From assembly GCA_000004695.1 (NCBI GenBank), contig CM000155.2, positions 2,464,001 to 2,528,000 on the forward strand: a stretch of DNA of 64,000 nucleotides. The letters are read 5' to 3'. This document shows, in pieces, positions 3,001-21,290 of the stretch (positions are counted from its first letter, which is position 1; every line of letters starts with the position of its first letter). The notes beneath the pieces were generated by a model. That model saw only the letters and a program-made list of their open reading frames with translations, made no database searches and was not told the DNA's origin. This stretch comes from Dictyostelium discoideum (Eukaryota). The position numbers and the translations under genes are program-made.

Positions 3001-5724
3001 GAAGAATGGGTCGATAAAATGCAGCAAAAACTATCATCAGGCAATGAGAGGGATGACGACGAAGAATATGATTATGATGATTTTGCAGAGGTAGAAGATA
3101 AAGATCCAGTCAGCTTGGAGGAATACATGAAAATCGATGAAAAGCAAAATCAAATTTATGAAAAATACCACAGTTCACTTTCTCTTAATAAAATGAAAGT
3201 TCGTGAAGAATTCATTGATCAAATTCATCTCAATAGAATGAATCAAATATTAAATGGTAAAGATTATAAAAATGGTTTAATCAATTTGGATGAAATGATC
3301 AAAGAATCAATCGTTGAACAAAGACAAAAACAACAACAACCACCATTATCACCAGAAGATTTAAAACTATTAAAAGATGGTTTACGTGATGAATTTGAAT
3401 CCATTCAAAAAGATATTGATCAAGTTATCCTTGAAGCTAAAAATATTAATGAACTCTCTAAAATGATGGAATCTCTTAAAAAATCTGAACTTCTCCAAGC
3501 TGAAAAAGAAAGTAAACTTGAAGAAGAAGAAGATGACGAAGAAGAAGAAGAAGAAGAGGACAATCAAGAATTAGAACAACAAAAAGAAGAATATAGTCAA
3601 GAAGAAGAATACGATCAAGAAGAATATGAACAACAAGAAAAAGATATGGAAGATAACGAATCAAAACTTCAAAAAGAAATAAGTGATCAATTGGAACAAG
3701 AAGAACTTAAAGAAATAGAAGCTTTAAAAACGAAAAGAGATTTAATAGATGATGATGTAATCACACTCGAGAATAGATTTAGTGAATGGATAAATGCTGA
3801 TAATTTAGGTGTAAATGAAAATGAACTCAAAAAATTAGAAAGTAATATTAAAAATCCTGAAGAATTAAACTTTCCAGAATTGTTAGATGACCGAAAGATT
3901 ATAGTCAAAGATCCAAAATCAATCTTAAAAATGAAAGAAGGAGCACTCAAACAATTAAAAGATAATTGGAATAAAGATGTACTCGTGTTGGAAGCTGATG
4001 AATTAGTTAATCCAAAAACCGTAAGAGCAGAGGACACTGAATCTATCCCAGATGATCTTACTCTTACCGATGAAGATGATCAAAATTTAGATGTTGAAGA
4101 TGCTGGTGACGTTGATTTTGATGTTGAAGAAAATAAAACCGATACAAAACTATTCATCAAAGGTGATGATATCCTTGCTTCTCAAAAAGTCGTAGAAGAT
4201 CAAGATATTGATGTTCTCCTCAATAGAGATAACCATACTGAAGTTAGTGAAGACAAAGAAGAAGAAGATGATGATGATGATGATATAGATAACATTGGAA
4301 TCTCAAATTTGGATGAAAATTCCGGTTCAGCCATTGATGCCTTTAAAAATCCAATTTTATCTGTTTCAGAAGAATCAATTTCAGAATTCAAGCCACCATC
4401 AACATCAGAAGTTACCCGTACAGAATCTGAAACATTAACATTCACCTTGAAGGAATTAAGTGAATATGAAGAGGTGATTCATCAACGTAAACTTTTAAGA
4501 ATTTATCGTTCATTCCCAAACTTTGGTATTTCTGATGAGTCACAGTTCAAAACTGATGAACTCATTTACGATGAAGATGGTGATAACGATTTCGCTGATA
4601 AATTATTCCTCATGGAAGTTAATACACTCTTAAACAAAGGTAATATCATGGATCAAGCAAGCAGACCAATCTTTGAAAATCAAAATGATGATCGTTTCAA
4701 TAATGTTGGTGCAGATGAAAGATTGGCCCAAGAGATGGGTTATGACAAAGATGACCTTTACGATGAAGATGAATCCCAAATGACTGAAGTCGAACAAGTA
4801 TTGCCACAAGTTCCAAATTCCGAAAATGATATGGCAGCCGCAAGAGCCTTTGAACTTGAAATGCAAACTAAAGAAATTCAACAATGGCGTGACGTTCCTC
4901 GTCTTGAAAATGCAAAGATTGTCGATATCTCTCGTCATGTTAAAGTAACCACAGCCGGTCGTGTTCAATCTTTTTCAGTAACCATTTTCAATGGTGATGG
5001 TAATGGTACCGCTGGTATGGGTTATGGTAAAGGTGATAGTGCATCATCTGCCTTAAGAAGAGCTTTCAAAGATTCCGAAAGAAACGCCTTCAGTTTGGAT
5101 AGATACAACCATCTCACTCTTCCATCTGGTTTAGATTTCAAATATAGAAGTACCAAAGTTAAATTCATCAAGAGTAGACCAATGGATTTTATGGATCATC
5201 GTGGTATTAAACCAAGTCTCATCTTACCAACTATCGGTCTTCATGGTGTCACCTTTAGAACCTATGGTAAGAAAGATTGGAACTCTGTCTTATTAGCCAT
5301 CCAAAAATGTCTACCACATTATACAAATCCTCAAGAAGCTGCTCGTATCATGGGTAAGAAATTCGTAACTCCAAATAGAGAAAAAGCTCAAAACAAAACT
5401 CTTCATCAATTATTAAAATCTAAACTCGAAACCAGAAATAATGATCCTTACAATTTAGGTATGGTTAGTAAATTCCTCTTTGATGTCGAAGATAAACCAG
5501 ATATCAATGAAATTAAAGAACGTAGATATCAAGAAGAAATTGATCAATTATTCGAACGTTATCCAATCGCTCCTTCAACACCTTTCTTGGGTGATAATGT
5601 TGAAGATTTTAAATTTAAAGGTATTAATATTAATGGTAATGGTAATGGTAATGGTAATCGTAAACATATTGATAAAATGCATCAAAAAGGTAGAAAACAT
5701 GGACGTAATACAAGAAATTTATAA
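1..5724 (+). CDS. Mitochondrial ribosomal protein S5 (uS5m) homolog, 5'-partial. The frame is open from nt 1, so the gene starts upstream of the window. It has a long acidic low-complexity N-terminal extension.
   Basis: Continuous 5.7-kb ORF in frame 1 with no stop between nt 1 and the TAA at 5722-5724. The ORF track starts it at a TTG at 118, which is not a real start. The C-terminal region (about 4880-5300) carries the uS5 signature GRVQSFSVTIFNGDGNGTAGMGYGKGDSASSALRRAFKDS followed by LPTIGLHGVTF, which matches both S5 domains. The upstream part contains poly-Q, acidic and poly-N tracts. Confidence 0.6.
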   Translation, partial: EALDKEYDEKVYAGHYNDKIRAKYTSQYSGRDLPYIHSTLEMLTSGRAIEEKMIYPKSTFKIVKDRHGKEIYVKTNKEDLDDFLGSGRKGAQVNLDNIRFEFVPKYEHVLHPEIARLSKPNQQQFIRMVETISRVFSQLDQYLENYREQFTNNELTYFETALKILREEYLTNPEFRKSFAKDQAADAAAAAATSTAAANSSSSPSSSSSIIGLTESEVQQANRDVEILLTNLLKDLHTKKMKAGINYEIKRSMKSFTLTPEDRDIIEEGAYQENPDATYDQAAADALGEEIDEIDLEIFEDDTLERGRYLEFDMMAYLKQIESTQATLYLHLKSLPTVEERKAVIKDFSQFKNIRDSIRNQRFVTSKESGQSLNDLITSHMTFMNTHESIVQKLTELETIVEDPEMVQTKLNLVEAIKLNTTLSPLQLFEKYIAPGASREDIAMEFGEKFVNDKNNDNNESRQVEIDELESSEFKNKLEQLKAAKQKEEPKKVLNQLEQELENKDKESGEGAEVDAAADTQGVIELPSIDELSKSPELIGYLEELNQNIGKSNYPMYEKHRTYLLRELERLNADRDAKVNTWEFGSLTEQLKQLLIKNGAAFEDLGNRFDELTTNVVNSPFSAKYLPLTPEALVEKEKQLDNLKQLLEARIKSNYTLKKGEEVEQMIRLREGIQMFREMGLDTDMELIEKTIFEDGELDTPSVNSIRESDIFEPVQLIKSLYKLGPHRFENAVQSLKRLPSMVYYCQYINDRFLNTNDTFIAPLDINEPTFEKFPPLLNYNDDYVEGLEYAIPILNYDGPKTLLKLGTVEHEELTFDHEKAGVELADQEEEEGFFDVEKIQEEMKGQEKEQHQQQHQQQQQQEEDEEEYEKEGYEEEDVEGHEEEKTTKILGLDPVRRFDEDYAEESEILSQFSKKNRTFLGEGSLNQLGDVYQDPLELIQDDNVVDPGDVQLFDKKIDQLISSREAANIVTESEVPITDPTQFIKYHPKARGELVSKDDEEWVDKMQQKLSSGNERDDDEEYDYDDFAEVEDKDPVSLEEYMKIDEKQNQIYEKYHSSLSLNKMKVREEFIDQIHLNRMNQILNGKDYKNGLINLDEMIKESIVEQRQKQQQPPLSPEDLKLLKDGLRDEFESIQKDIDQVILEAKNINELSKMMESLKKSELLQAEKESKLEEEEDDEEEEEEEDNQELEQQKEEYSQEEEYDQEEYEQQEKDMEDNESKLQKEISDQLEQEELKEIEALKTKRDLIDDDVITLENRFSEWINADNLGVNENELKKLESNIKNPEELNFPELLDDRKIIVKDPKSILKMKEGALKQLKDNWNKDVLVLEADELVNPKTVRAEDTESIPDDLTLTDEDDQNLDVEDAGDVDFDVEENKTDTKLFIKGDDILASQKVVEDQDIDVLLNRDNHTEVSEDKEEEDDDDDDIDNIGISNLDENSGSAIDAFKNPILSVSEESISEFKPPSTSEVTRTESETLTFTLKELSEYEEVIHQRKLLRIYRSFPNFGISDESQFKTDELIYDEDGDNDFADKLFLMEVNTLLNKGNIMDQASRPIFENQNDDRFNNVGADERLAQEMGYDKDDLYDEDESQMTEVEQVLPQVPNSENDMAAARAFELEMQTKEIQQWRDVPRLENAKIVDISRHVKVTTAGRVQSFSVTIFNGDGNGTAGMGYGKGDSASSALRRAFKDSERNAFSLDRYNHLTLPSGLDFKYRSTKVKFIKSRPMDFMDHRGIKPSLILPTIGLHGVTFRTYGKKDWNSVLLAIQKCLPHYTNPQEAARIMGKKFVTPNREKAQNKTLHQLLKSKLETRNNDPYNLGMVSKFLFDVEDKPDINEIKERRYQEEIDQLFERYPIAPSTPFLGDNVEDFKFKGININGNGNGNGNRKHIDKMHQKGRKHGRNTRNL

Positions 5725-6029
5725 ATAAAAAAAAAAAAAAAATAATAATAATATAATTTAATTCATTTACTTCTTTTTTAAAAAAAAAAAAAATAATAAT
5801 ACAAACTCATATATTAAAAAAAAAAAAAAAAAACAATAATAAATAAAATCATTAATTAAAAAAAAAAAAAAAACCATTTAGTTTACACTTGTTATTTTGG
5901 AAAAAAAAAAAAACTTTCCCAAATCTTGAGTTTTACTTTTTTTTTTTTTTTATGTTTTTTTTTTTTTTAATTTTATATTTGTGTTTGTGTGTTATAAGAT
6001 TTAAAATTTTCATAAAAAATAATAATAAA

Positions 6030-10342: not shown

Positions 10343-11089
10343 TTGATAATAATAGCTGATAAAATTAGTGCAAATCCACAGGGTATTATAGGATATTTTA
10401 TTAATATTAGCATTTTAGAGATTCCTAATGAAAAAAAACATATGGAATATTTGTTAAAATTCAAAAATTTTATTGTCTATTATTACAAAAAAAATACACA
10501 AGAAGTTTTGAACCAAGAGTTATTTTCATTTCTTGCAGCATTTCATGGACCAGATTTACAAAAACAAAACCAACAATATTTATTAGATTTGGTTTATGAT
10601 ATTAAAAGTTTTCCAGGAAAAGAATACTTGGTTAAAGAACTACTTTCACATGGTTATTACGATTTATTTTTAATGGAATATGCAGAAACAAAAAAACCAG
10701 CTTTTCATTTCTTTTTGTTGAACCATTTACCATTTAATGAATTTCTCAATCTTTCAAAGAATTTCTATTATCATAGTTTTAGAAAATTTTTTAAGAGATC
10801 ACCACCATGGAATTCTGATGCATTCTTAAGAGCATTGTTTCATTCTAATCAGGTACTTTTAAATCCAACTAAAACTGAATACATTTTCAAAATGGTTGAA
10901 GCTTCAACATCTTTATCAACAAATAATATTAAATCATTATATGATGCAGCTTTTCAATTTTCATTAAAATCATCATCATCATCACATTTCTCATCTACTG
11001 TATCAACTTGTTCACCATCTTTATCACCAATATCAACTTTATTTAAATCACATAAATTTTTATCAGAATTATTTGATGAAACTCTATCA

Positions 11090-11130
<41 letters not shown>

Positions 11131-11297
11131 AGTAAAAAAATTATTCTTAACAAATAATTTAGAATTCTTTTTAAAAGTATTAACTATTGATAATATTGAT
11201 AAATATTTATTACAAATTTTTGGTAAAAATAAATTATTATCTTCAAAAATTTATATTGATAAAATCAATTCTAAATTTAATAGTAATAATAATAATG

Positions 11298-11350
<53 letters not shown>

Positions 11351-12936
11351 CAAAAATTTATAAATTATTTACCATTATCAACAGAATTTAAAGAAAGAAT
11401 TTTATATATGTTAAGTTGTGATAAATCAATTGCACAATTTCAAAGATTAAATATAGTTATGGTTTGCAAACATTTCTTTTCTACATTTAGTAAACTTATT
11501 AATAATTCAACGATTGTACCAATCATTTTAAGTTATAATCAATTTAGTAATCTTATTAGTAATTCATTTAAAAATTTTAGATCAAATTCAATGATTTCAT
11601 TTCAAAAAGTGAAATATTTAAAGATCTTTAACGATAGAATTCCAAAACTAACAAACACTGAAAAAATTGAAGAATCAAAATTATCATTAAGATCAAAACA
11701 ATTGAAAAATATATTATCACCACCACCACCACCAATGACAACTAAATTATTTACATCAACAATGTTAACCCATGAAAGTTTTTTTGGTTCAATCTATTTT
11801 TCAATTGACTTTTTCACTGGATTAGAAATTCTTGAAATTGATCAACTCATTGAATTTCATCAAGTTTTATTACTCAAATCACTAAAAAAGATAATATTAC
11901 ATCTTGAACAAAGTGAAGGTTCATCATTTGGTCCTGAAGATAAAGAGAAAATCGATCTTTTAGTAAATGGTGGTATTTTCAATGATTTTACAACTGATGG
12001 ATATATTGTTGAATTACATTTCAAACATTATAAAAATAAAAATCATGGTATAGATATGTCATTAGTGAAATCAGTTTCAATGGGATTATCGAAATTCTTT
12101 GATTTATTCGATGATGATATGGCATCAATACCAATACTTTATTTAGATTTAAATGATTCTCCAACAAGAAATTCACTAGAAACCTTTAAAAAATATTTAA
12201 AATCATCTCCAAAGAAATTATTATTAAATGAATTACATTTACATTTTTCAGTTCATAGTAGTAGCATAATAGGTAATAATAATAATAATAATAATAATAT
12301 TTTAAGTATTGAAAATATTTTAGAGAATTTCAAATCATTCAGTAAAATTCAAACATTATATTTCCATATTACATCCAATGAAATACCAATACCATCTAAA
12401 GTAACCATACAATCAGTTATTAAATCAACACTCGAATTTATTTTATCAAACTTCAAAATGGTCAACAAAGTTTTATTCATCGATGAATATGGTCTTCCAT
12501 TGAATATTGATTGGTATCATATTTTAAATATATTACCTAAAGTGAATATAAATACTTTTGATTTCATAGGGTTTCATATTGATAACCAACCTGATATCAC
12601 AAAGGCTATTGAAGGAAATAATAAAAATAATTTATCAATTAACCAACAACAAAAAGAACAACCAACAAAAACAACAACAACATCAACAAAAACAACAACA
12701 ATAACACCGACAGTAGCAGAAACAAAACAACCAAAAGCAGCAAAAACATCAGAAACAAGACAACCAACACCAATAAAAACAAAACAAACAACAACAACAC
12801 CAACACCAACACCAATAAAAACAACACCAACACCAACACCAACAACAACACCAACACCAACACCAACAACAAAAATACCAACACCAACACCAACAACCAC
12901 AAAAACAACAACAACACCAACACCAACAACAACACC

Positions 12937-12982
<46 letters not shown>

Positions 12983-13486
12983 CCAACACCAACAACAACA
13001 CCAACACCAACAACAACACCAACAACCTCAAAACAACCTCAAAAACCTAAAGAACAATCGCATGAAAACATTGCTTTTACAGATTTTTATGGTTTTAATG
13101 AAAAGAATAGTGAAAAAGATAGCGAAGATGAAGATGAAGATGAAGATGAAGATGAAGATGAAGATGAAGATGAAGATGAAGATGAAGATGATGAGGATAA
13201 GTTTTCGGATGATTGTAGTTCTGACTCATTTTATTTTAGAGAGTACTCTGATAAAAGAGAACTTGGTCAAACTGATGATGGACAATTCACTCCATCAAAA
13301 TATTCCAGAACGAGACATATGTATCATGGTGGTGGTGGTGATGATTCTGATGATTCTGATGATGGCTCAGACTCTGATGAAGCCGCTAACTTTTTTGCTC
13401 ATCAATTAGCAAGAGCTTCATTACATGGAATGTTGGGTGCTTTAGGTTTTCTTGATAATTCCGATAGTGACGATGATTCTGATTGA
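10343..13486 (+). CDS. Large hypothetical protein (at least 1047 aa) with poly-N tracts, a T/P-rich mucin-like repeat region (12650-13030), a (DE)n acidic run (13125-13200) and a conserved C-terminus (FYGFNEKNSEKD...DDCSSDSFYFREYSDKRELGQTDDGQF...LHGMLGALGFLD).
   Basis: 3.1-kb uninterrupted ORF. The frame is open upstream back to 10247 with no in-frame ATG, and the track start at 10343 is a TTG, so the true 5' end probably lies in upstream exons. The ACACCAACACCAACA repeats encode TPTPTT. I recognise no family. Confidence 0.6.
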
Positions 13487-14498: not shown

Positions 14499-14516
14499 AA
14501 TTTAGTTTGAAAAGAG

Positions 14517-14588
14517 CTCCCCATCCGGGAATCGAACCCGGGGTACCAGTGTGAGAGACTAGAGTGTTACCGACTACACCAATGAGGA
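14517..14588 (-). tRNA. tRNA-Glu (anticodon CUC).
   Basis: The minus strand reads TCCTCATTGGTGTAGTCGGTAACACTCTAGTCTCTCACACTGGTACCCCGGGTTCGATTCCCGGATGGGGAG. The 7-bp acceptor stem has one G-U pair. The D-arm is GTGT/ACAC. The anticodon stem is CTAGT/ACTGG with loop CTCTCAC. The T-arm is CCGGG-TTCGATT-CCCGG. The discriminator is G. Total length is 72 nt. Confidence 0.8.
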
Positions 14589-14760
14589 ATTGGATGAAAT
14601 TTGTAATAAAGTTCCTCTATAAAATTAATAGATAATAAATATGCATTCACATTACTAATTGTGTGACACACATTTAAATAATATAATAATAATAATACTG
14701 TCAACTCATTATAAATAATATAAATACTAAAGAATAATTTTATTAACAAAATTGGTAATT

Positions 14761-14833
14761 TAGAAACAATCTAAATTAAATAAAAAACCTCAATTTGTAA
14801 TGAAGGTTTTTTATTTAATTTAGATTGTTTCTA
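14761..14833. repeat. Perfect palindrome with 29-bp arms (tagaaacaatctaaattaaataaaaaacc / ggttttttatttaatttagattgtttcta) and a 15-nt loop.
   Basis: Arm 1 is 14761-14789, the loop tcaatttgtaatgaa is 14790-14804, and arm 2 is 14805-14833. It lies about 170 bp upstream of the tRNA-Glu 5' end, between the tRNA and the TRE remnants. Confidence 0.85.
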
Positions 14834-15132
14834 ACGATTAAAATGAGATATCTAAAGAAGCAACTAAAAATTGCGTTATTCGAAAAAAACAAACAACAAC
14901 AACAACAACAACAATCTCTTTTTTTGATTATTTCATTTTTCATATAAAAAGACATAAAACAAATAAATAAATAAAAAAAATAAACTATTTTAAAAAGCCA
15001 TCTTTTTACTTTATTGTAATTTATTATTTGTTTCGTTTTGAAAAAAAAAAATGAAAAAAATAATCAGATCGAAAAAAACAAACAACAACAACAATCTCTT
15101 TTTTTGATTATTTCATTTTTCATATAAAAAGA

Positions 15133-15168
<36 letters not shown>

Positions 15169-15459
15169 GAACCCAAGTTAATCAGAAAATTTCCAGATTT
15201 TTAACTTTTCAAAGTAAAATAAAAAAATTAGAAAGAAAATAAGATGAAAATTACAAACAACACCACAAATATTAAGCGACACAAATGCCTACGAAAAATA
15301 AGCGAAATTGTGAATAAAACTCAATTAAAAAAAAAACAATTCAAATACGTCATAAACATCAATCACGAACCAGACGATAAAATAAAAAAAGATTTAGAAA
15401 AAAGTTTGGACAAAAAAGATGTTTTAATCAAAAGTAATAATACAATTCAAAATTTGAAA

Positions 15460-15514
<55 letters not shown>

Positions 15515-15600
15515 CCCCTCTTTTAGAGACCCTGTAAAAAACTACAAATAAAATGAGATCTAGCATCTCAAGGAGAAGCAACTAATAATTGCGACTTCAT
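14832..15600 (+). mobile_element. Degenerate TRE5-A-like retrotransposon remnants upstream of tRNA-Glu. They comprise a solo 3'-module fragment (14832-14878), two A-modules (14879-15140), a B-module, the first 66 codons of ORF1 (from 15244) and a 3'-terminal module (15516-15597) without an A-tail.
   Basis: A-module sequence gatcgaaaaaaacaaacaacaacaacaatctctttttttgattatttcatttttcatataaaaag... occurs at 14879 and 15066. The B-module cctgagaacccaagttaatcagaaaatttccagatttttaactttt precedes ATG 15244 (MKITNNTTNIKRHKCL...). The ORF is broken at an A-run and joined to ggtaaacccctcttttagagaccctgtaaaaa...aaaatgagatctagcatctcaaggagaagcaactaataattgcg. Confidence 0.6.
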
Positions 15601-15675
15601 CTCTGATTTCTATTGAGATTAGTGATGAAGAATAAAAAAAAATCATTACAACATTTTTATTATTATTTTAAAAAA

Positions 15676-15748
15676 TGGAGAAGAAGGGTATCGATCCCTT
15701 TACCTCTCGCATGCTAAGCGAGCGCTCTACCATCTGAGCTACATCCCC
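15676..15748 (-). tRNA. tRNA-Ala (anticodon AGC).
   Basis: The minus strand reads GGGGATGTAGCTCAGATGGTAGAGCGCTCGCTTAGCATGCGAGAGGTAAAGGGATCGATACCCTTCTTCTCCA (73 nt). The anticodon loop is CTTAGCA, the D-loop is AGATGGTA and the T-arm is AAGGG-ATCGATA-CCCTT. There is one T-T mismatch at acceptor pair 6-67, which is why confidence stays below 0.8. Confidence 0.7.
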
Positions 15749-15864
15749 TTTGATGGAAAGTATTTTTTATTAGAAATACTCGTACGTTATTATCTGAGAT
15801 CGAAAAAAACAAACAACAACAACAATCTCTTTTTTTGATTATTTCATTTTTCATATAAAAAAGA

Positions 15865-15909
<45 letters not shown>

Positions 15910-15984
15910 GGAACCAAGTTAATTAGAAAATTTCCAGATTTTTAACTTTTTAAAGAAAAATAAAAAAGATAGAAAGAAAATAAA

Positions 15985-17319
15985 ATGAAAATCACAAACA
16001 ACACCACAAATATTAAGCAACACAAATGCCTACAAAAAATAAGCGAAATTGTGGATAAAACTCAATTAAAAAAAAAACAATTCAAATACGTCATAAACAT
16101 CAATCACGAACCAGACGATAAAATAAAAAAAGATTTAGAAAAAAGTTTGGACAAAAAAGATGTTTTAATCAAAAGTAATAATACATTCAAAATTCTCACA
16201 GACAGTATTAGTACAGTAATCTATTTTGTAAATATGTTTGATGCAGAATTAAAAGGACAATTTATAACCACTATAAGACCAAAAAATATGTATACAGATT
16301 TTGATTGGTATAAATCACTCACAGAAATAGAATGGGTAATAGAAAATGAAGGATGTAAACTAATTAAATCAGAAATTAAAGGCGAAACTCTAATTATCAA
16401 AACAGTGAAAAGAGTCGTAGAAGAATTTGACACTATCATTGAACTAGACAATCTAACATTAATTGGACACTCCAACAAAGGATGGAGAGATCAAACCTCA
16501 TTACCAGAAAATCAAGAAGAAAACAAAAATAAAAAACAATCAGATGAACAACAACCACAATCTACATCAGAACAAATACCAAAACAAGGAAAAAGAACAA
16601 TCATTATCCCACCAATCACATCCTCATCTAATGATAAAACATTTATGGCCCTAGATGATACAGCTCAAAAGGTAATAGATGCATCACTAGAAAACGTAGA
16701 TGAACTAACAAGAATAGAGAATGAGATCAATACACAATCGATAAACAATCAAGAAATTAAAACAAAATCAGAAAAACCTATCGAACCACCATCTCCATAC
16801 AATACACCAATAAAACAACACGGCGAAACAAAGAGACTAACAACGGAAGAAAAACTTAGAGAGGTAAATGATATCTTCGACTTCACCAGCCCAAACACTG
16901 ATGCAATAAGAAAAATAGAATTCCCACTTTCAATCCCTTCAAATCAATGGTTCTTCTCCTCTCCAATAAAACATATCATGAGTTTCAGCCCAACCTATGG
17001 TACACCATCGAAAATTATCGATTCACCAAGTAAATTGTTAAACACACCAAAAAACAAACAACAAGACAAAACAAACAGGACCAACAAAACACCAGTCAAA
17101 CCAAAATTGGGTGAATATGGACAAAAAAGCATAAAAACAAAAATGGATGAAGATATAGACAACTTCAACAAGGAAATTCTAAAACAAATCAGTAAATCAA
17201 AAAACCCCACAAACACACAAGACCAACAACACAATGAACAAAGTAAAGATCAGTTAGAAGACAAAATAAACCAGAAACTTCAAAAGGTAGATAAAAATCT
17301 ACCCCAAATAAAACTATAA
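15985..17319 (+). CDS. TRE5-A-like retrotransposon ORF1 protein (444 aa), intact.
   Basis: ATG immediately after the B-module. It is 99% identical (4 aa differences) to the copy at 18983..20317. Truncated 66-89-codon versions occur at 15244, 17699 and 20725. I recognise no conserved domain, as expected for ORF1 of this family. Confidence 0.7.
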   Translation: MKITNNTTNIKQHKCLQKISEIVDKTQLKKKQFKYVININHEPDDKIKKDLEKSLDKKDVLIKSNNTFKILTDSISTVIYFVNMFDAELKGQFITTIRPKNMYTDFDWYKSLTEIEWVIENEGCKLIKSEIKGETLIIKTVKRVVEEFDTIIELDNLTLIGHSNKGWRDQTSLPENQEENKNKKQSDEQQPQSTSEQIPKQGKRTIIIPPITSSSNDKTFMALDDTAQKVIDASLENVDELTRIENEINTQSINNQEIKTKSEKPIEPPSPYNTPIKQHGETKRLTTEEKLREVNDIFDFTSPNTDAIRKIEFPLSIPSNQWFFSSPIKHIMSFSPTYGTPSKIIDSPSKLLNTPKNKQQDKTNRTNKTPVKPKLGEYGQKSIKTKMDEDIDNFNKEILKQISKSKNPTNTQDQQHNEQSKDQLEDKINQKLQKVDKNLPQIKL

Positions 17320-17572
17320 AGAAAAACACAATAAGAATAGGTGTTTGGAACGTCCAAGGATCCAATACCATCCAATCTGCCAGCATAATAAACACCGTTT
17401 TAGACAACAACAAGCTGGACGCAGCACTTCTAACTGAAACAAATATAAAAACAAATAAAATTTACTCAATAAATCAACAATATAAAAACAAAATAACACA
17501 CCACGCACCAATTGATAAAACAGGACAAGGGGTGTCACAAATCATCATCAACACCCGCAATAGAACTTCCTA
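17300..17572 (+). pseudogene. 5'-terminal fragment of TRE5 ORF2 (APE-like endonuclease N-terminus), overlapping the ORF1 stop in the +1 frame and truncated after about 85 codons.
   Basis: ...KNTIRIGVWNVQGSNTIQSASIINTVLDNNKLDAALLTETNIKTNKIYSINQQYKNKITHHAPIDKTGQGVSQIIINTRNRTS*. The WNxxG...LxxETxI motif is characteristic of the L1/APE endonuclease domain. The RT domain is absent, as in the short TRE5-A.2-class copies. Confidence 0.55.
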
Positions 17573-17615
17573 AACATCTCAAAAAATACAATAATTCACT
17601 CAGTACTTTCTATAA

Positions 17616-17657
<42 letters not shown>

Positions 17658-17999
17658 CAAGTTAATCAGAAAAATAAAAAAGATAGAAAGAAAATAAAAT
17701 GAAAATCACAAACAACACCACAAATATTAAGCAACACAAATGCCTACAAAAAATAAGCGAAATTGTGGATAAAACTCAATTAAAAAAAAAACAATTCAAA
17801 TACGTCATAAACATCAATCACGAACCAGACGATAAAATAAAAAAAGATTTAGAAAAAAGTTTGGACAAAAAAGATGTTTTAATCAAAAAGACCCTGTAAA
17901 AAAAAAAAAAAAATAAAATGAGATCTAGCATCTCAAGGAGAAGCAAATAATAATTGCGTTATCCAATTCAAAAAAAAAAAAAGTACGTTATTATCTAGA

Positions 18000-18862
18000 G
18001 ATCGAAAAAAACAAACAACAACAACAATCTCTTTTTTTGATTATTTCATTTTTCATATAAAAAAGACTTAAAAAACAAATAAATAAATAAATAAACTATT
18101 TTAAAAAGCCATCTTTTTACTTTATTGTAATTTATTATTTGTTTCGTTTTGAGAATTTTGCGTAGCAAAATTTTCAAAAAAAAAGCAAAAAATAATCAGA
18201 TCGAAAAAAACAAACAACAACAACAATCTCTTTTTTTGATTATTTCATTTTTCATATAAAAAAGACTTAAAAAACAAATAAATAAATAAATAAACTATTT
18301 TAAAAAGCCATCTTTTTACTTTATTGTAATTTATTATTTGTTTCGTTTTGAGAATTTTGCGTAGCAAAATTTTCAAAAAAAAAGCAAAAAATAATCAGAT
18401 CGAAAAAAACAAACAACAACAACAATCTCTTTTTTTGATTATTTCATTTTTCATATAAAAAAGACTTAAAAAACAAATAAATAAATAAATAAACTATTTT
18501 AAAAAGCCATCTTTTTACTTTATTGTAATTTATTATTTGTTTCGTTTTGAGAATTTTGCGTAGCAAAATTTTCAAAAAAAAAGCAAAAAATAATCAGATC
18601 GAAAAAAACAAACAACAACAACAATCTCTTTTTTTGATTATTTCATTTTTCATATAAAAAAGACTTAAAAAACAAATAAATAAATAAATAAACTATTTTA
18701 AAAAGCCATCTTTTTACTTTATTGTAATTTATTATTTGTTTCGTTTTGAGAATTTTGCGTAGCAAAATTTTCAAAAAAAAAGCAAAAAATAATCAGATCG
18801 AAAAAAACAAACAACAACAACAATCTCTTTTTTTGATTATTTCATTTTTCATATAAAAAAGA

Positions 18863-18890
<28 letters not shown>
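18000..18890 (+). repeat. Tandem array of TRE5-A A-modules: four complete units of 199-200 bp (starts at 18000, 18198, 18398 and 18597) plus a partial fifth (18796-about 18868) ending in an A-run.
   Basis: Near-identical units gatcgaaaaaaacaaacaacaacaacaatctctttttttgattatttcatttttcatataaaaaagacttaaaaaacaaataaataaataaataaactattttaaaaagccatctttttactttattgtaatttattatttgtttcgttttgagaattttgcgtagcaaaattttcaaaaaaaaagcaaaaaataatca. The copy at 15797 has a single truncated unit. Confidence 0.85.
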
Positions 18891-18907
<17 letters not shown>

Positions 18908-18982
18908 GGAACCAAGTTAATTAGAAAATTTCCAGATTTTTAACTTTTTAAAGAAAAATAAAAAAGATAGAAAGAAAATAAA

Positions 18983-20317
18983 ATGAAAATCACAAACAAC
19001 ACCACAAATATTAAGCAACACAAATGCCTACAAAAAATAAGCGAAATTGTGGATAAAACTCAATTAAAAAAAAAACAATTCAAATACGTCATAAACATCA
19101 ATCACGAACCAGACGATAAAATAAAAAAAGATTTAGAAAAAAGTTTGGACAAAAAAGATGTTTTAATCAAAAGTAATAATACATTCAAAATTCTCACAGA
19201 CAGTATTAGTACAGTAATCTATTTTGTAAATATGTTTGATGCAGAATTAAAAGGACAATTTATAACCACTATAAGACCAAAAAATATGTATACAGATTTT
19301 GATTGGTATAAATCACTCACAGAAATAGAATGGGTAATAGAAAATGAAGGATGTAAACTAATTAAATCAGAAATTAAAGGCGAAACTCTAATTATCAAAA
19401 CAGTGAAAAGAGTCGTAGAAGAATTTGACACTATCATTGAACTAGACAATCTAACATTAATTGGACACTCCAACAAAGGATGGAGAGATCAAACCTCATT
19501 ACCAGAAAATCAAGAAGAAAACAAAAATAAAAAACAATCAGATGAACAACAACCACAATCTACATCAGAACAAATACCAAAACAAGGAAAAAGAACAATC
19601 ATTATCCCACCAATCACCTCCTCATCTAATGATAAAACATTTATGGCCCTAGATGATACAGCTCAAAAGGTAATAGAAGCATCACTAGAAAACGTAGATG
19701 AACTAACAAGAATAGAGAATGAGATCAATACACAATCGATAAACAATCAAGAAATTAAAACAAAATCAGAAAAACCTATCGAACCACCATCTCCATACAA
19801 TACACCAATAAAACAACACGGCGAAACAAAGGGACTAACAACGGAAGAAAAACTTAGAGAGGCAAATGATATCTTCGACTTCACCAGCCCAAACACTGAT
19901 GCAATAAGAAAAATAGAATTCCCACTTTCAATCCCTTCAAATCAATGGTTCTTCTCCTCTCCAATAAAACATATCATGAGTTTCAGCCCAACCTATGGTA
20001 CACCATCGAAAATTATCGATTCACCAAGTAAATTGTTAAACACACCAAAAAAGAAACAACAAGACAAAACAAACAAGACCAACAAAACACCAGTCAAACC
20101 AAAATTGGGTGAATATGGACAAAAAAGCATAAAAACAAAAATGGATGAAGATATAGACAACTTCAACAAGGAAATTCTAAAACAAATCAATAAATCAAAA
20201 AACCCCACAAACACACAAGACCAACAACACAATGAACAAAGTAAAGATCAGTTAGAAGACAAAATAAACCAGAAACTTCAAAAGGTAGATAAAAATCTAC
20301 CCCAAATAAAACTATAA
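18983..20317 (+). CDS. TRE5-A-like ORF1 protein (444 aa), second intact copy.
   Basis: It differs from 15985..17319 by four substitutions (D/E, R/G with V/A, NK/KK with R/K, S/N). It is followed by the same ORF2 5' fragment (20298-20570). Confidence 0.7.
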   Translation: MKITNNTTNIKQHKCLQKISEIVDKTQLKKKQFKYVININHEPDDKIKKDLEKSLDKKDVLIKSNNTFKILTDSISTVIYFVNMFDAELKGQFITTIRPKNMYTDFDWYKSLTEIEWVIENEGCKLIKSEIKGETLIIKTVKRVVEEFDTIIELDNLTLIGHSNKGWRDQTSLPENQEENKNKKQSDEQQPQSTSEQIPKQGKRTIIIPPITSSSNDKTFMALDDTAQKVIEASLENVDELTRIENEINTQSINNQEIKTKSEKPIEPPSPYNTPIKQHGETKGLTTEEKLREANDIFDFTSPNTDAIRKIEFPLSIPSNQWFFSSPIKHIMSFSPTYGTPSKIIDSPSKLLNTPKKKQQDKTNKTNKTPVKPKLGEYGQKSIKTKMDEDIDNFNKEILKQINKSKNPTNTQDQQHNEQSKDQLEDKINQKLQKVDKNLPQIKL

Positions 20318-20613
20318 AGAAAAACACAATAAGAATAGGTGTTTGGAACGTCCAAGGATCCAACACCATCCAATCTGCCAGCATAATAAACACCGTTTTA
20401 GACAACAACAAGCTGGACGCAGCACTTCTAACTGAAACAAATATAAAAACAAATAAAATTTACTCAATAAATCAACAATATAAAAACAAAATAACACACC
20501 ACGCACCAATTGATAAAACAGGACAAGGGGTGTCACAAATCATCATCAACACCCGCAATAGAACTTCCTAAACATCTCAAAAAATACAATAATTCACTCA
20601 GTACTTTCTATAA

Positions 20614-20683
<70 letters not shown>

Positions 20684-21000
20684 CAAGTTAATCAGAAAAA
20701 TAAAAAAGATAGAAAGAAAATAAAATGAAAATCACAAACAACACCACAAATATTAAGCAACACAAATGCCTACAAAAAATAAGCGAAATTGTGGATAAAA
20801 CTCAATTAAAAAAAAAACAATTCAAATACGTCATAAACATCAATCACGAACCAGACGATAAAATAAAAAAAGATTTAGAAAAAAGTTTGGACAAAAAAGA
20901 TGTTTTAATCAAAAAGACCCTGTAAAAAAAAAAAAAAAATAAAATGAGATCTAGCATCTCAAGGAGAAGCAAATAATAATTGCGTTATCCAATTCAAAAA

Positions 21001-21037
21001 AAAAAGTACGTTATTATCTACAATTCAAAATTCGAAA

Positions 21038-21077
<40 letters not shown>

Positions 21078-21290
21078 TAAACCAACCCCTCTTTTAGAGA
21101 CCCTGTAAAAAAAAAAAAATTAAAATAAAATAAAATGAGATCTAGCATCTCAAGGAGAAGCAAATAATAATTGCGTTATCCAATTCAAAAAAAAAAAGTA
21201 CGTTAATTTCTTATCTTTTCTCAAGGAGAAGCAACTAATAATTGCGTTATCCAATTCAAAAAAAAATTCTACGTTATTTCCAATCATGAA
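21001..21290 (+). mobile_element. Oldest, most distal TRE5 remnants. They are solo 3'-terminal modules with A-tails (21019-21075 internal fragment, 21085-21190 and 21205-21268), separated by diverged copies of the target-site repeat.
   Basis: ggtaaaccaacccctcttttagagaccctgtaaaaa(A)n...aaaatgagatctagcatctcaaggagaagcaaataataattgcgttatccaattc(A)n gtacgttaatttct...tctcaaggagaagcaactaataattgcgttatccaattc(A)n ttctacgttatttcc, then unique sequence from about 21285. Confidence 0.55.

Follow-up and report, generated by a model that had tools for sequence, protein, structure and literature searches.

TRE5-A, formerly called DRE, is a non-LTR retrotransposon of Dictyostelium discoideum whose 3′ end, the C-module, is a region to which CbfA binds in vitro at oligo(dA) tracts. 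The full-length element, TRE5-A.1, is organized as AB-ORF1/ORF2-BC: the A-module measures 200 bp, the B-module (290 bp) holds the start of open reading frame 1 (ORF1) and is duplicated into the 3′ untranslated region (UTR), and the C-module (134-137 bp) terminates the element (PMC3159450). TRE5-A.2 is a non-autonomous AB-ORF1-BC derivative with a large deletion in ORF2 and a 72-bp deletion in BC, so that the 3′ 87 bp of C are retained (PMC3159450). TRE5-A integrates on the upstream side of tRNA genes, at a distance of 47 ± 3 bp and in the opposite orientation, with target-site duplications (TSDs), extra nucleotides at the 5′ junction and 5′ deletions as hallmarks, and renewed insertion at a tRNA gene that is already occupied gives TRE-TRE tandems (PMC5391098, PMC3159450, PMC5911963). 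Here we analyzed a stretch of 64,000 nucleotides of D. discoideum DNA (GenBank assembly GCA_000004695.1, contig CM000155.2, positions 2,464,001 to 2,528,000 of the forward strand; the window), in which a first-pass annotation made from the sequence alone had noticed a recurrent sequence of roughly 60 bases, some copies of which stand alone. We report that this motif represents the canonical C-module of TRE5-A, its 3′ untranslated end, and that the joins between the module and the rest of the element are the normal BC structures of TRE5-A.1 and TRE5-A.2. The solo copies are very probably extreme 5′ truncations within a tandem of tRNA-targeted insertions.

Very short, 5′-truncated insertions that pile up at a single tRNA gene are ordinary for TRE5-A. 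A close parallel is found in the 5′-truncated insertions that long interspersed nuclear elements (LINEs) make by target-primed reverse transcription, including human L1 and the 5′-deleted TRE5-A copies of the TRE-trap and TRE5-Absr assays, which have the same fixed 3′ end and variable 5′ end as the solo copies, and also an A-tail, TSDs and occasional filler at the 5′ junction. The solo copies differ from these in being truncated to as little as 18-38 nt and restacked at one 14-bp target, the latter because the tRNA gene dictates the target. A second parallel is offered by short interspersed nuclear elements (SINEs) whose 3′ tail is also that of a partner LINE, as with UnaSINE and UnaL2 of the eel; these are likewise short, end in the 3′ stem-loop of the partner and are mobilized by that LINE. 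Unlike them, the solo tails have no head with an RNA polymerase III (pol III) promoter, no unit length and no independent lineage.

We compared the window with 12 other loci (L001-L012), giving a sample of 13 loci and ~270 kb. The loci were fetched via ORF1 of one window copy (E2, below) and two ORF2 homologues; the sample is therefore biased, all loci having been picked through a TRE5 protein. One of them, L006, represents the locus of the window itself as found in a second, independent and chromosome-scale assembly (GCA_054883475.1), and copy counts leave it out. The reference for blastn was a full-length TRE5-A.1 of 5828 nt from another D. discoideum assembly (L002, 12031-17869), which is flanked by the TSD GATTAATCACCAAT.

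The recurrence of the motif, as described in the first-pass annotation, was borne out. The 32-mer AAAATGAGATCTAGCATCTCAAGGAGAAGCAA has exact plus-strand matches at 15550, 17915, 20941 and 21132, and none were found in 100 shuffles. Its 3′ half, GGAGAAGCAA[A/C]TAATAATTGCGTTATCCAATTC, was found at 17937, 20963, 21154 and 21225, and GACCCTGTAAAA(A)n lies 5′ of the motif at 15528, 17890, 20916 and 21099. Four complete motif ends run into oligo(A) of 13, 10, 11 and 9 nt, and the copy at 15550-15593, which forms the end of an older remnant (E0), is cut after ...TAATAATTGCG, with the last ~11 nt and the tail gone; this missing tail, the preceding (A)n element and the oligo(A) ends had all been recorded correctly.

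The identity of the motif as the C-module, which the annotation had offered as one of its possibilities (the element's true 3′ module), agrees with the published description of TRE5-A in every property that we compared (PMC3159450). The motif stands at the 3′ end, after the 3′ B-module, in E0, in two long copies (E1 and E2) and in full-length TRE5-A.1 (L002, L003). Both long copies align with the reference over 1-2160, 5294-5670 and 5740-5839, at ~98% identity over the body, and these alignment blocks on a TRE5-A.1 reference give them the architecture of TRE5-A.2. A.1-type copies have a long C-module of ~137 nt, and A.2 copies a shorter one of ~81-87 nt; accordingly, E1 and E2 keep 81 nt of C, and E0, a solo copy (E3) and a 312-nt copy at L007 (L007-312) have the long form. 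Bases of the C-module that were mutated in earlier work, C38 and A35 in stem I and C26 and T15 in stem III, numbered from the 3′ end (PMC3159450), were recovered exactly when we counted back from 17969 in the copy at 17915-17969, and all four fall in predicted stems. The predicted stem-loop in the 3′-terminal ~54 nt has a minimum free energy of -11.3 kcal/mol (z = -2.87), and such a terminal stem-loop is needed by the TRE5-A machinery to start target-primed reverse transcription. Runs of oligo(dA) lie within the C-modules at 15452-15509, 21040-21076 and 21106-21119. In placement, length classes, stem bases, predicted 3′ hairpin and internal oligo(dA), then, the window shows no substantive difference from the TRE5-A C-module, and it carries two sequence variants, GCAAA and GCAAC.

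The joins between the module and what had been taken for ORF1 do lie at different positions, as the annotation had stated, and it had counted a join at codon 66 in three copies. We found this join (GTTTTAATCAAAAAGACCCTG) in two, at 17876 (E1) and 20902 (E2); the third, at 15421 (E0), is of another type, a TRE5-A.1-type BC junction. In a multiple alignment of BC regions, E1 and E2 lack AAGTAATAATACAATTCAAAATTCGAAAC-(A)n-GTAAACTAACCCCTCTTTTAG, a stretch of ~71-72 nt that is retained in E0, E3, L007-312 and a 511-nt copy at L008 (L008-511). The codon-66 join is therefore the BC deletion of TRE5-A.2 inside the 3′ B-module, and the join at about codon 75 via an A-run is an intact TRE5-A.1-type BC junction. 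The "ORF1" beside the module is the 3′ B-module copy, which repeats the start of ORF1 and in so doing yields ORFs of 66 and 89 amino acids (aa). Template switching onto a short 3′ RNA, which had been proposed from the differing joins, is not called for, since the joins are the A.1-type BC junction and the A.2 72-bp BC deletion. As a separate observation, the 3′ B-modules of E1 and E2 (17656-17700 and 20682-20726) carry an extra 29-nt deletion (TTTCCAGATTTTTAACTTTTTAAAGAA...) relative to their own 5′ B-modules and to the 3′ B-module of TRE5-A.1.

Both solo copies of the window belong to a stack of four head-to-tail insertions, E1 to E4, upstream of a tRNA-Ala(AGC) gene (Table 1). The 14-mer GTACGTTATTATCT occurs in three exact copies and a fourth with two mismatches, and stands after each A-tail and ahead of each element; ~0.5 matches would be expected by chance. 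The element nearest to the tRNA gene starts 48 bp upstream of its 5′ end, in the window and in L006 alike, and is oriented opposite to it. E1 consists of a partial A-module, a B-module, ORF1 (15985-17319), an ORF2 stub, a 3′ B-module (17656-17889) and an 81-nt C-module (17889-17969) with an A13 tail. E2 has four full A-modules and one partial one, followed by B, ORF1 (18983-20317), an ORF2 stub, a 3′ B-module (20682-20915) and a C-module (20915-20995) with an A10 tail; its ORF1 protein is encoded identically at 9 other places in GCA_054883475.1. The two elements show 9 differences in 2172 aligned positions, and their TSDs match at 14/14 bases.

Table 1. Features of the window around the tRNA-Glu(CTC) and tRNA-Ala(AGC) genes
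Feature	Coordinates	Strand	Basis and remarks
tRNA-Glu(CTC) gene	14516..14588	-	ARAGORN; Rfam tRNA 55.6 bits
Degenerate TRE5-C-type C-module tail, ~42 nt	14839..14880	+	42/42 aligned bases as in TRE5-C tail, L011 6886-6939
E0, old diverged ORF-less TRE5-A remnant	14880..15593	+	blastn 88-91% identity, reference 210-798 and 5363-5816
tRNA-Ala(AGC) gene	15676..15748	-	ARAGORN; Rfam tRNA 58.1 bits; target of four stacked insertions
TSD copy 1 (GTACGTTATTATCT)	15782..15795		exact 14-mer
E1, TRE5-A.2 copy	15796..17982	+	blastn reference 401-2160, 5294-5670, 5740-5839
TSD copy 2	17983..17996		exact 14-mer
E2, TRE5-A.2 copy	17997..21005	+	landmarks, ORFs, blastn
TSD copy 3	21006..21019		exact 14-mer
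E3, solo copy, 169 nt + A11	21020..21197	+	blastn reference 5678-5838; BC alignment
TSD copy 4 (GTACGTTAATTTCT, 2 mismatches)	21198..21211		TSD search
E4, solo copy, 38 nt + A9	21220..21266	+	blastn reference 5789-5836

The first of the solo copies had been placed at 21133-21190. It is indeed without a body, and it is longer than described: E3 begins in the last bases of a 3′ B-module and runs through a whole A.1-type C-module, 169 nt at 21020-21186, between TSD copies 3 and 4. An 8-nt stretch, TATCTTTT, follows directly after TSD copy 4 (21212-21219). The second, reported at 21220-21268, is E4; its 5′ end is C38, halfway through stem I of the hairpin. Like E0, E4 has the GCAAC form of the sequence, the older variant, and behind its tail lies TTCTACGTTATTTCC (21267-21281), a decayed TSD-like flank.

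With this arrangement, 15782-21281 is a TRE5-A tandem, very probably produced by at least four successive insertions at one spot. Each new cDNA would have entered on the tRNA side of the copies already present, duplicating the same 14 bp again and displacing the older copies outward, so that the order from youngest (tRNA-proximal) to oldest would be E1, E2, E3 and E4. Because each solo copy has its own tail and TSD, each represents a separate insertion event. In the case of E3 and E4, reverse transcription would have been primed at the oligo(A) terminus of TRE5-A RNA and very probably stopped after 169 or 38 nt, after which the truncated cDNA would have been joined to the target; solo and long copies would then differ only in how far reverse transcription had proceeded. 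The annotation's alternative of an extreme 5′ truncation series thus fits the data well: the 5′ ends vary, and the copies have their own A-tails and TSDs and lie upstream of a tRNA gene, in the canonical position.

The second assembly contains no E1: a single TSD (L006, 5612-5626) is directly followed by E2 and then by E3 and E4. This bears out the prediction of the model that the tRNA-proximal copy is the youngest; the difference reflects either polymorphism for this insertion or its recent arrival in the strain of the window. E0, E3, E4 and a degenerate C-module copy to the left of E0 are base-for-base identical in L006. The A-module array of E2 also differs, with 5 A-module starts in the window (18000-18995) versus 22 in L006 (5626-9900), which reflects either a true difference in the number of 199-bp promoter modules or a repeat collapse in one assembly. 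In the alignment, GCAAC together with AACTACAAAT occurs in E0 and in a 128-nt tail at L003 (L003-128), GCAAC occurs in E4 as well, and GGTAAACCAACCCC occurs in E3, L007-312 and L008-511; the solo copies thus share diagnostic variants with body-containing subfamilies.

Copies that lack a TRE5 body and lie near tRNA genes with TSDs, for which a wider search had been suggested, proved common in the sampled loci. We counted 13 ORF1-bearing copies, 2 ORF-less A-B-C copies, 3 partial copies (312, 961 and ~1155 nt) and 12 solo tails of at most 170 nt. The solo tails measure ~18, 26, 33, 35, 38, 40, 60, 60, 84, 105, 128 and 169 nt, with differing 5′ ends; 10 of the 12 lie outside the window (~18-128 nt) and have TSDs. 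We considered whether the 5′ ends cluster at the base of the hairpin and found 4/12 tails at 33-40 nt, too few for such a claim. The first-pass annotation had also named a contrary outcome, namely that the sequence would be simply the canonical C-module of TRE5-A and never occur independently; it is the canonical C-module, and body-less copies of it exist.

Tandems that share one TSD were found at L002, L003, L007, L008 and L010. At L003, a tRNA-Thr(CGU) locus, copies of 5626, 2525, 961 and 128 nt are followed by degenerate tails of ~60, 26, 18 and 40 nt, all separated by the TSD GTTTTGTAATTAAA. Within this locus, 12003-13400 holds at least six successive short insertions (961, 128, ~60, 26, 18 and 40 nt) distal to the two long copies. 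Two copies, of 3770 and 312 nt, lie at L007, and a TRE5-A.2 plus a TRE5-A.1 at L002; L008 has an ORF1-bearing copy, with an uncertain 5′ boundary (the nearest TSD-like match has 2 mismatches), in addition to the 511-nt ORF-less A-B-C copy. At L010, a TRE5-C element is followed by a ~105-nt TRE5-A tail, and one TSD is common to both. Lone tails with TSDs stand upstream of tRNA genes that have no other TRE5-A: one of 84 nt at L004 (13821-13918), upstream of a tRNA-Ser(GCU), and one of ~60 nt on the minus strand at L012 (2539-2620), upstream of a tRNA-Ser, each at a distance of 46-50 bp. Seven filler bases, ATCCAAT, lie between the TSD and the 5′ end of the tail at L004 (13809-13835) and match the C-module's own 3′ end (ATCCAATTC). 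A further pair of ~33-35-nt tails with the common flank TTTAAATATTGCAAAG was observed at L012 (11427-11534), 650 bp past a full-length TRE5-A.1; neither a tRNA gene nor an Rfam family was found near these tails, the Rfam scan of 10780-11700 being empty.

The number of such tails, which in the sampled loci have A-tails and TSDs at tRNA genes, is what would be seen if they were full-length copies of a SINE-like, non-autonomous RNA ending in the C-module hairpin and copied in trans by the TRE5-A ORF2 protein, the hitchhiker of the first-pass annotation. The last 87 nt, in which the hairpin lies, do suffice as a 3′ recognition signal, and TRE5-A.2 is mobilized in trans (PMC3159450). Yet the 12 tails, at ~18-169 nt, have no common 5′ end and no unit length, and E4, which lacks half of stem I, and the shorter tails are without part or all of a stem whose disruption abolished retrotransposition (PMC3159450). 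We detected no B box in the module even at 2 mismatches and no credible A box, and Rfam matched the two tRNA genes and no other family. The C-module carries a weak promoter, the only one known there, which is antisense, and activity falls by 99.5% when an element has no ORF1 (PMC3159450). The solo copies also carry the variants of contemporaneous body-containing copies, as set out above, and we regard such a SINE-like RNA as highly improbable. Loss of the bodies by recombination or replication slippage between modules, leaving remnants comparable to solo long terminal repeats, is equally improbable in our estimation. Tandem TRE5-A copies do provide long direct repeats, the ORF-less A-B-C copies (E0 and L008 11996-12518) resemble products of B-B recombination or template switching, and the number of A-modules varies between the assemblies (5 versus 22 starts). 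Homologous recombination would, however, leave complete modules and not arbitrary internal cuts that abut a TSD; every tail has its own TSD and an A-run of different length, and the lone tails occur at tRNA genes without any other TRE5-A.

Least probable of all, to the point of being negligible, is an assembly artefact in which mis-joined, repeat-rich reads gave rise to spurious short copies. This repeat does differ in at least one assembly or strain, as seen in the A-module count and in E1, but E0, E3, E4 and the degenerate tail are identical in an independent chromosome-scale assembly, and the same kind of tail array recurs at many loci. For some of the solo tails we also considered switching between elements, in which cDNA synthesis, on reaching the 5′ end of its TRE5 template, would jump to the 3′ hairpin region of a second TRE5 RNA; the tails concerned would then not be independent insertions. 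The fusion of E0 to a TRE5-C-type tail (below) and the ATCCAAT filler at L004 are compatible with such a jump, and we judge it unlikely, if less so than the explanations above.

Several observations sit uneasily with the interpretation of the solo copies as 5′ truncations within a tandem at tRNA-Ala. The TSDs of the two oldest copies are imperfect, E3 matching at 12/14 bases and E4 only with indels. E0 and the TRE5-C-type tail lie 250-290 bp upstream of tRNA-Glu, which is outside the 37-211 bp from tRNA genes reported for genomic TRE5-A copies in the reference genome (PMC5391098), and they meet at a junction without A-tail or TSD. Finally, 12 very short tails stand against 13 ORF1-bearing copies and 3 intermediate truncations in this biased sample, a skew toward very short tails for which simple random termination does not account; it could reflect abortion of synthesis at a discrete step immediately beyond the hairpin.

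To the left of the tandem, in AT-rich Dictyostelium DNA and between two tRNA genes that ARAGORN and Rfam both place on the minus strand, lies E0, to which tRNA-Glu(CTC) is the closest pol III gene. E0 comprises an A-module, a partial A-module, one B-module and an A.1-type C-module (~15446-15593). At 714 nt, it is one of two ORF-less A-B-C copies with a single B-module, the other being the 511-nt copy at L008 (11996-12518), which has intact TSDs; in both, the 5′ and 3′ B-modules may have recombined, or a template switch may have occurred between them. A segment of 82 bp (15594-15675) separates the cut end of E0 from the 3′ end of tRNA-Ala and contains a short inverted repeat, CTTCATC...GATGAAG, followed by A9. 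We considered this segment as the tail of another element, for example TRE3, and set the idea aside, as its sequence is unique among the 13 loci and its orientation is unfit for TRE3 (PMC5911963).

The degenerate copy of the motif noted at 14832-14878 is present, at the slightly different position given in Table 1, and is closer to the C-module of TRE5-C than to that of TRE5-A (89% counting gaps, versus 78% identity to TRE5-A). The cores of the two C-modules are themselves similar, with 45/55 bases identical when the L011 tail is used (82%; ~78% published). The window copy shares GAAGCAACTAAAAATTGCGTTATTC exactly with the TRE5-C tail (L011, L010) and differs from it by small deletions in stem I, by the absence of the last 5 nt and the A-tail, and by its fusion to a TRE5-A A-module. 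At this fusion the tail joins base 5 of the A-module of E0 (GCGTTAT/TCGAAAAAAAC) with a 2-nt TC overlap. A direct junction of this kind (14869-14900) is the sole case among the 13 loci, and is the same at L006 (4713-4744); either a local deletion or a jump of the reverse transcriptase between templates could have produced it. Between tRNA-Glu and the TRE5-C-type tail we also observed a near-perfect inverted repeat of 75-79 nt (14759-14837; 90.7% complementary). Taken as a repeat, the spacer at 14589-14838 gave low-complexity matches only, and an Rfam match to mir-559 was rejected for the 75-nt hairpin, its score of 39.7 bits (cut-off 95) being regarded as a chance result for an AT-rich hairpin.

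For annotation, these results mean that the region should be described as a TRE5-A tandem at tRNA-Ala, made up of two TRE5-A.2 copies and two extreme 5′-truncated tails, with an adjoining older A-B-C remnant that carries a TRE5-C-type tail. The "ORF1-like" frames of 66 and 89 aa in the 3′ B-modules are not genes. Beyond correct annotation the importance of the locus is small. E1, being polymorphic between the assemblies, can serve to mark recent activity of TRE5-A.2. In arrays of solo tails, the sequence of insertions at a given tRNA gene is preserved, and such arrays could help to date the waves in which TRE5-A subfamilies spread.

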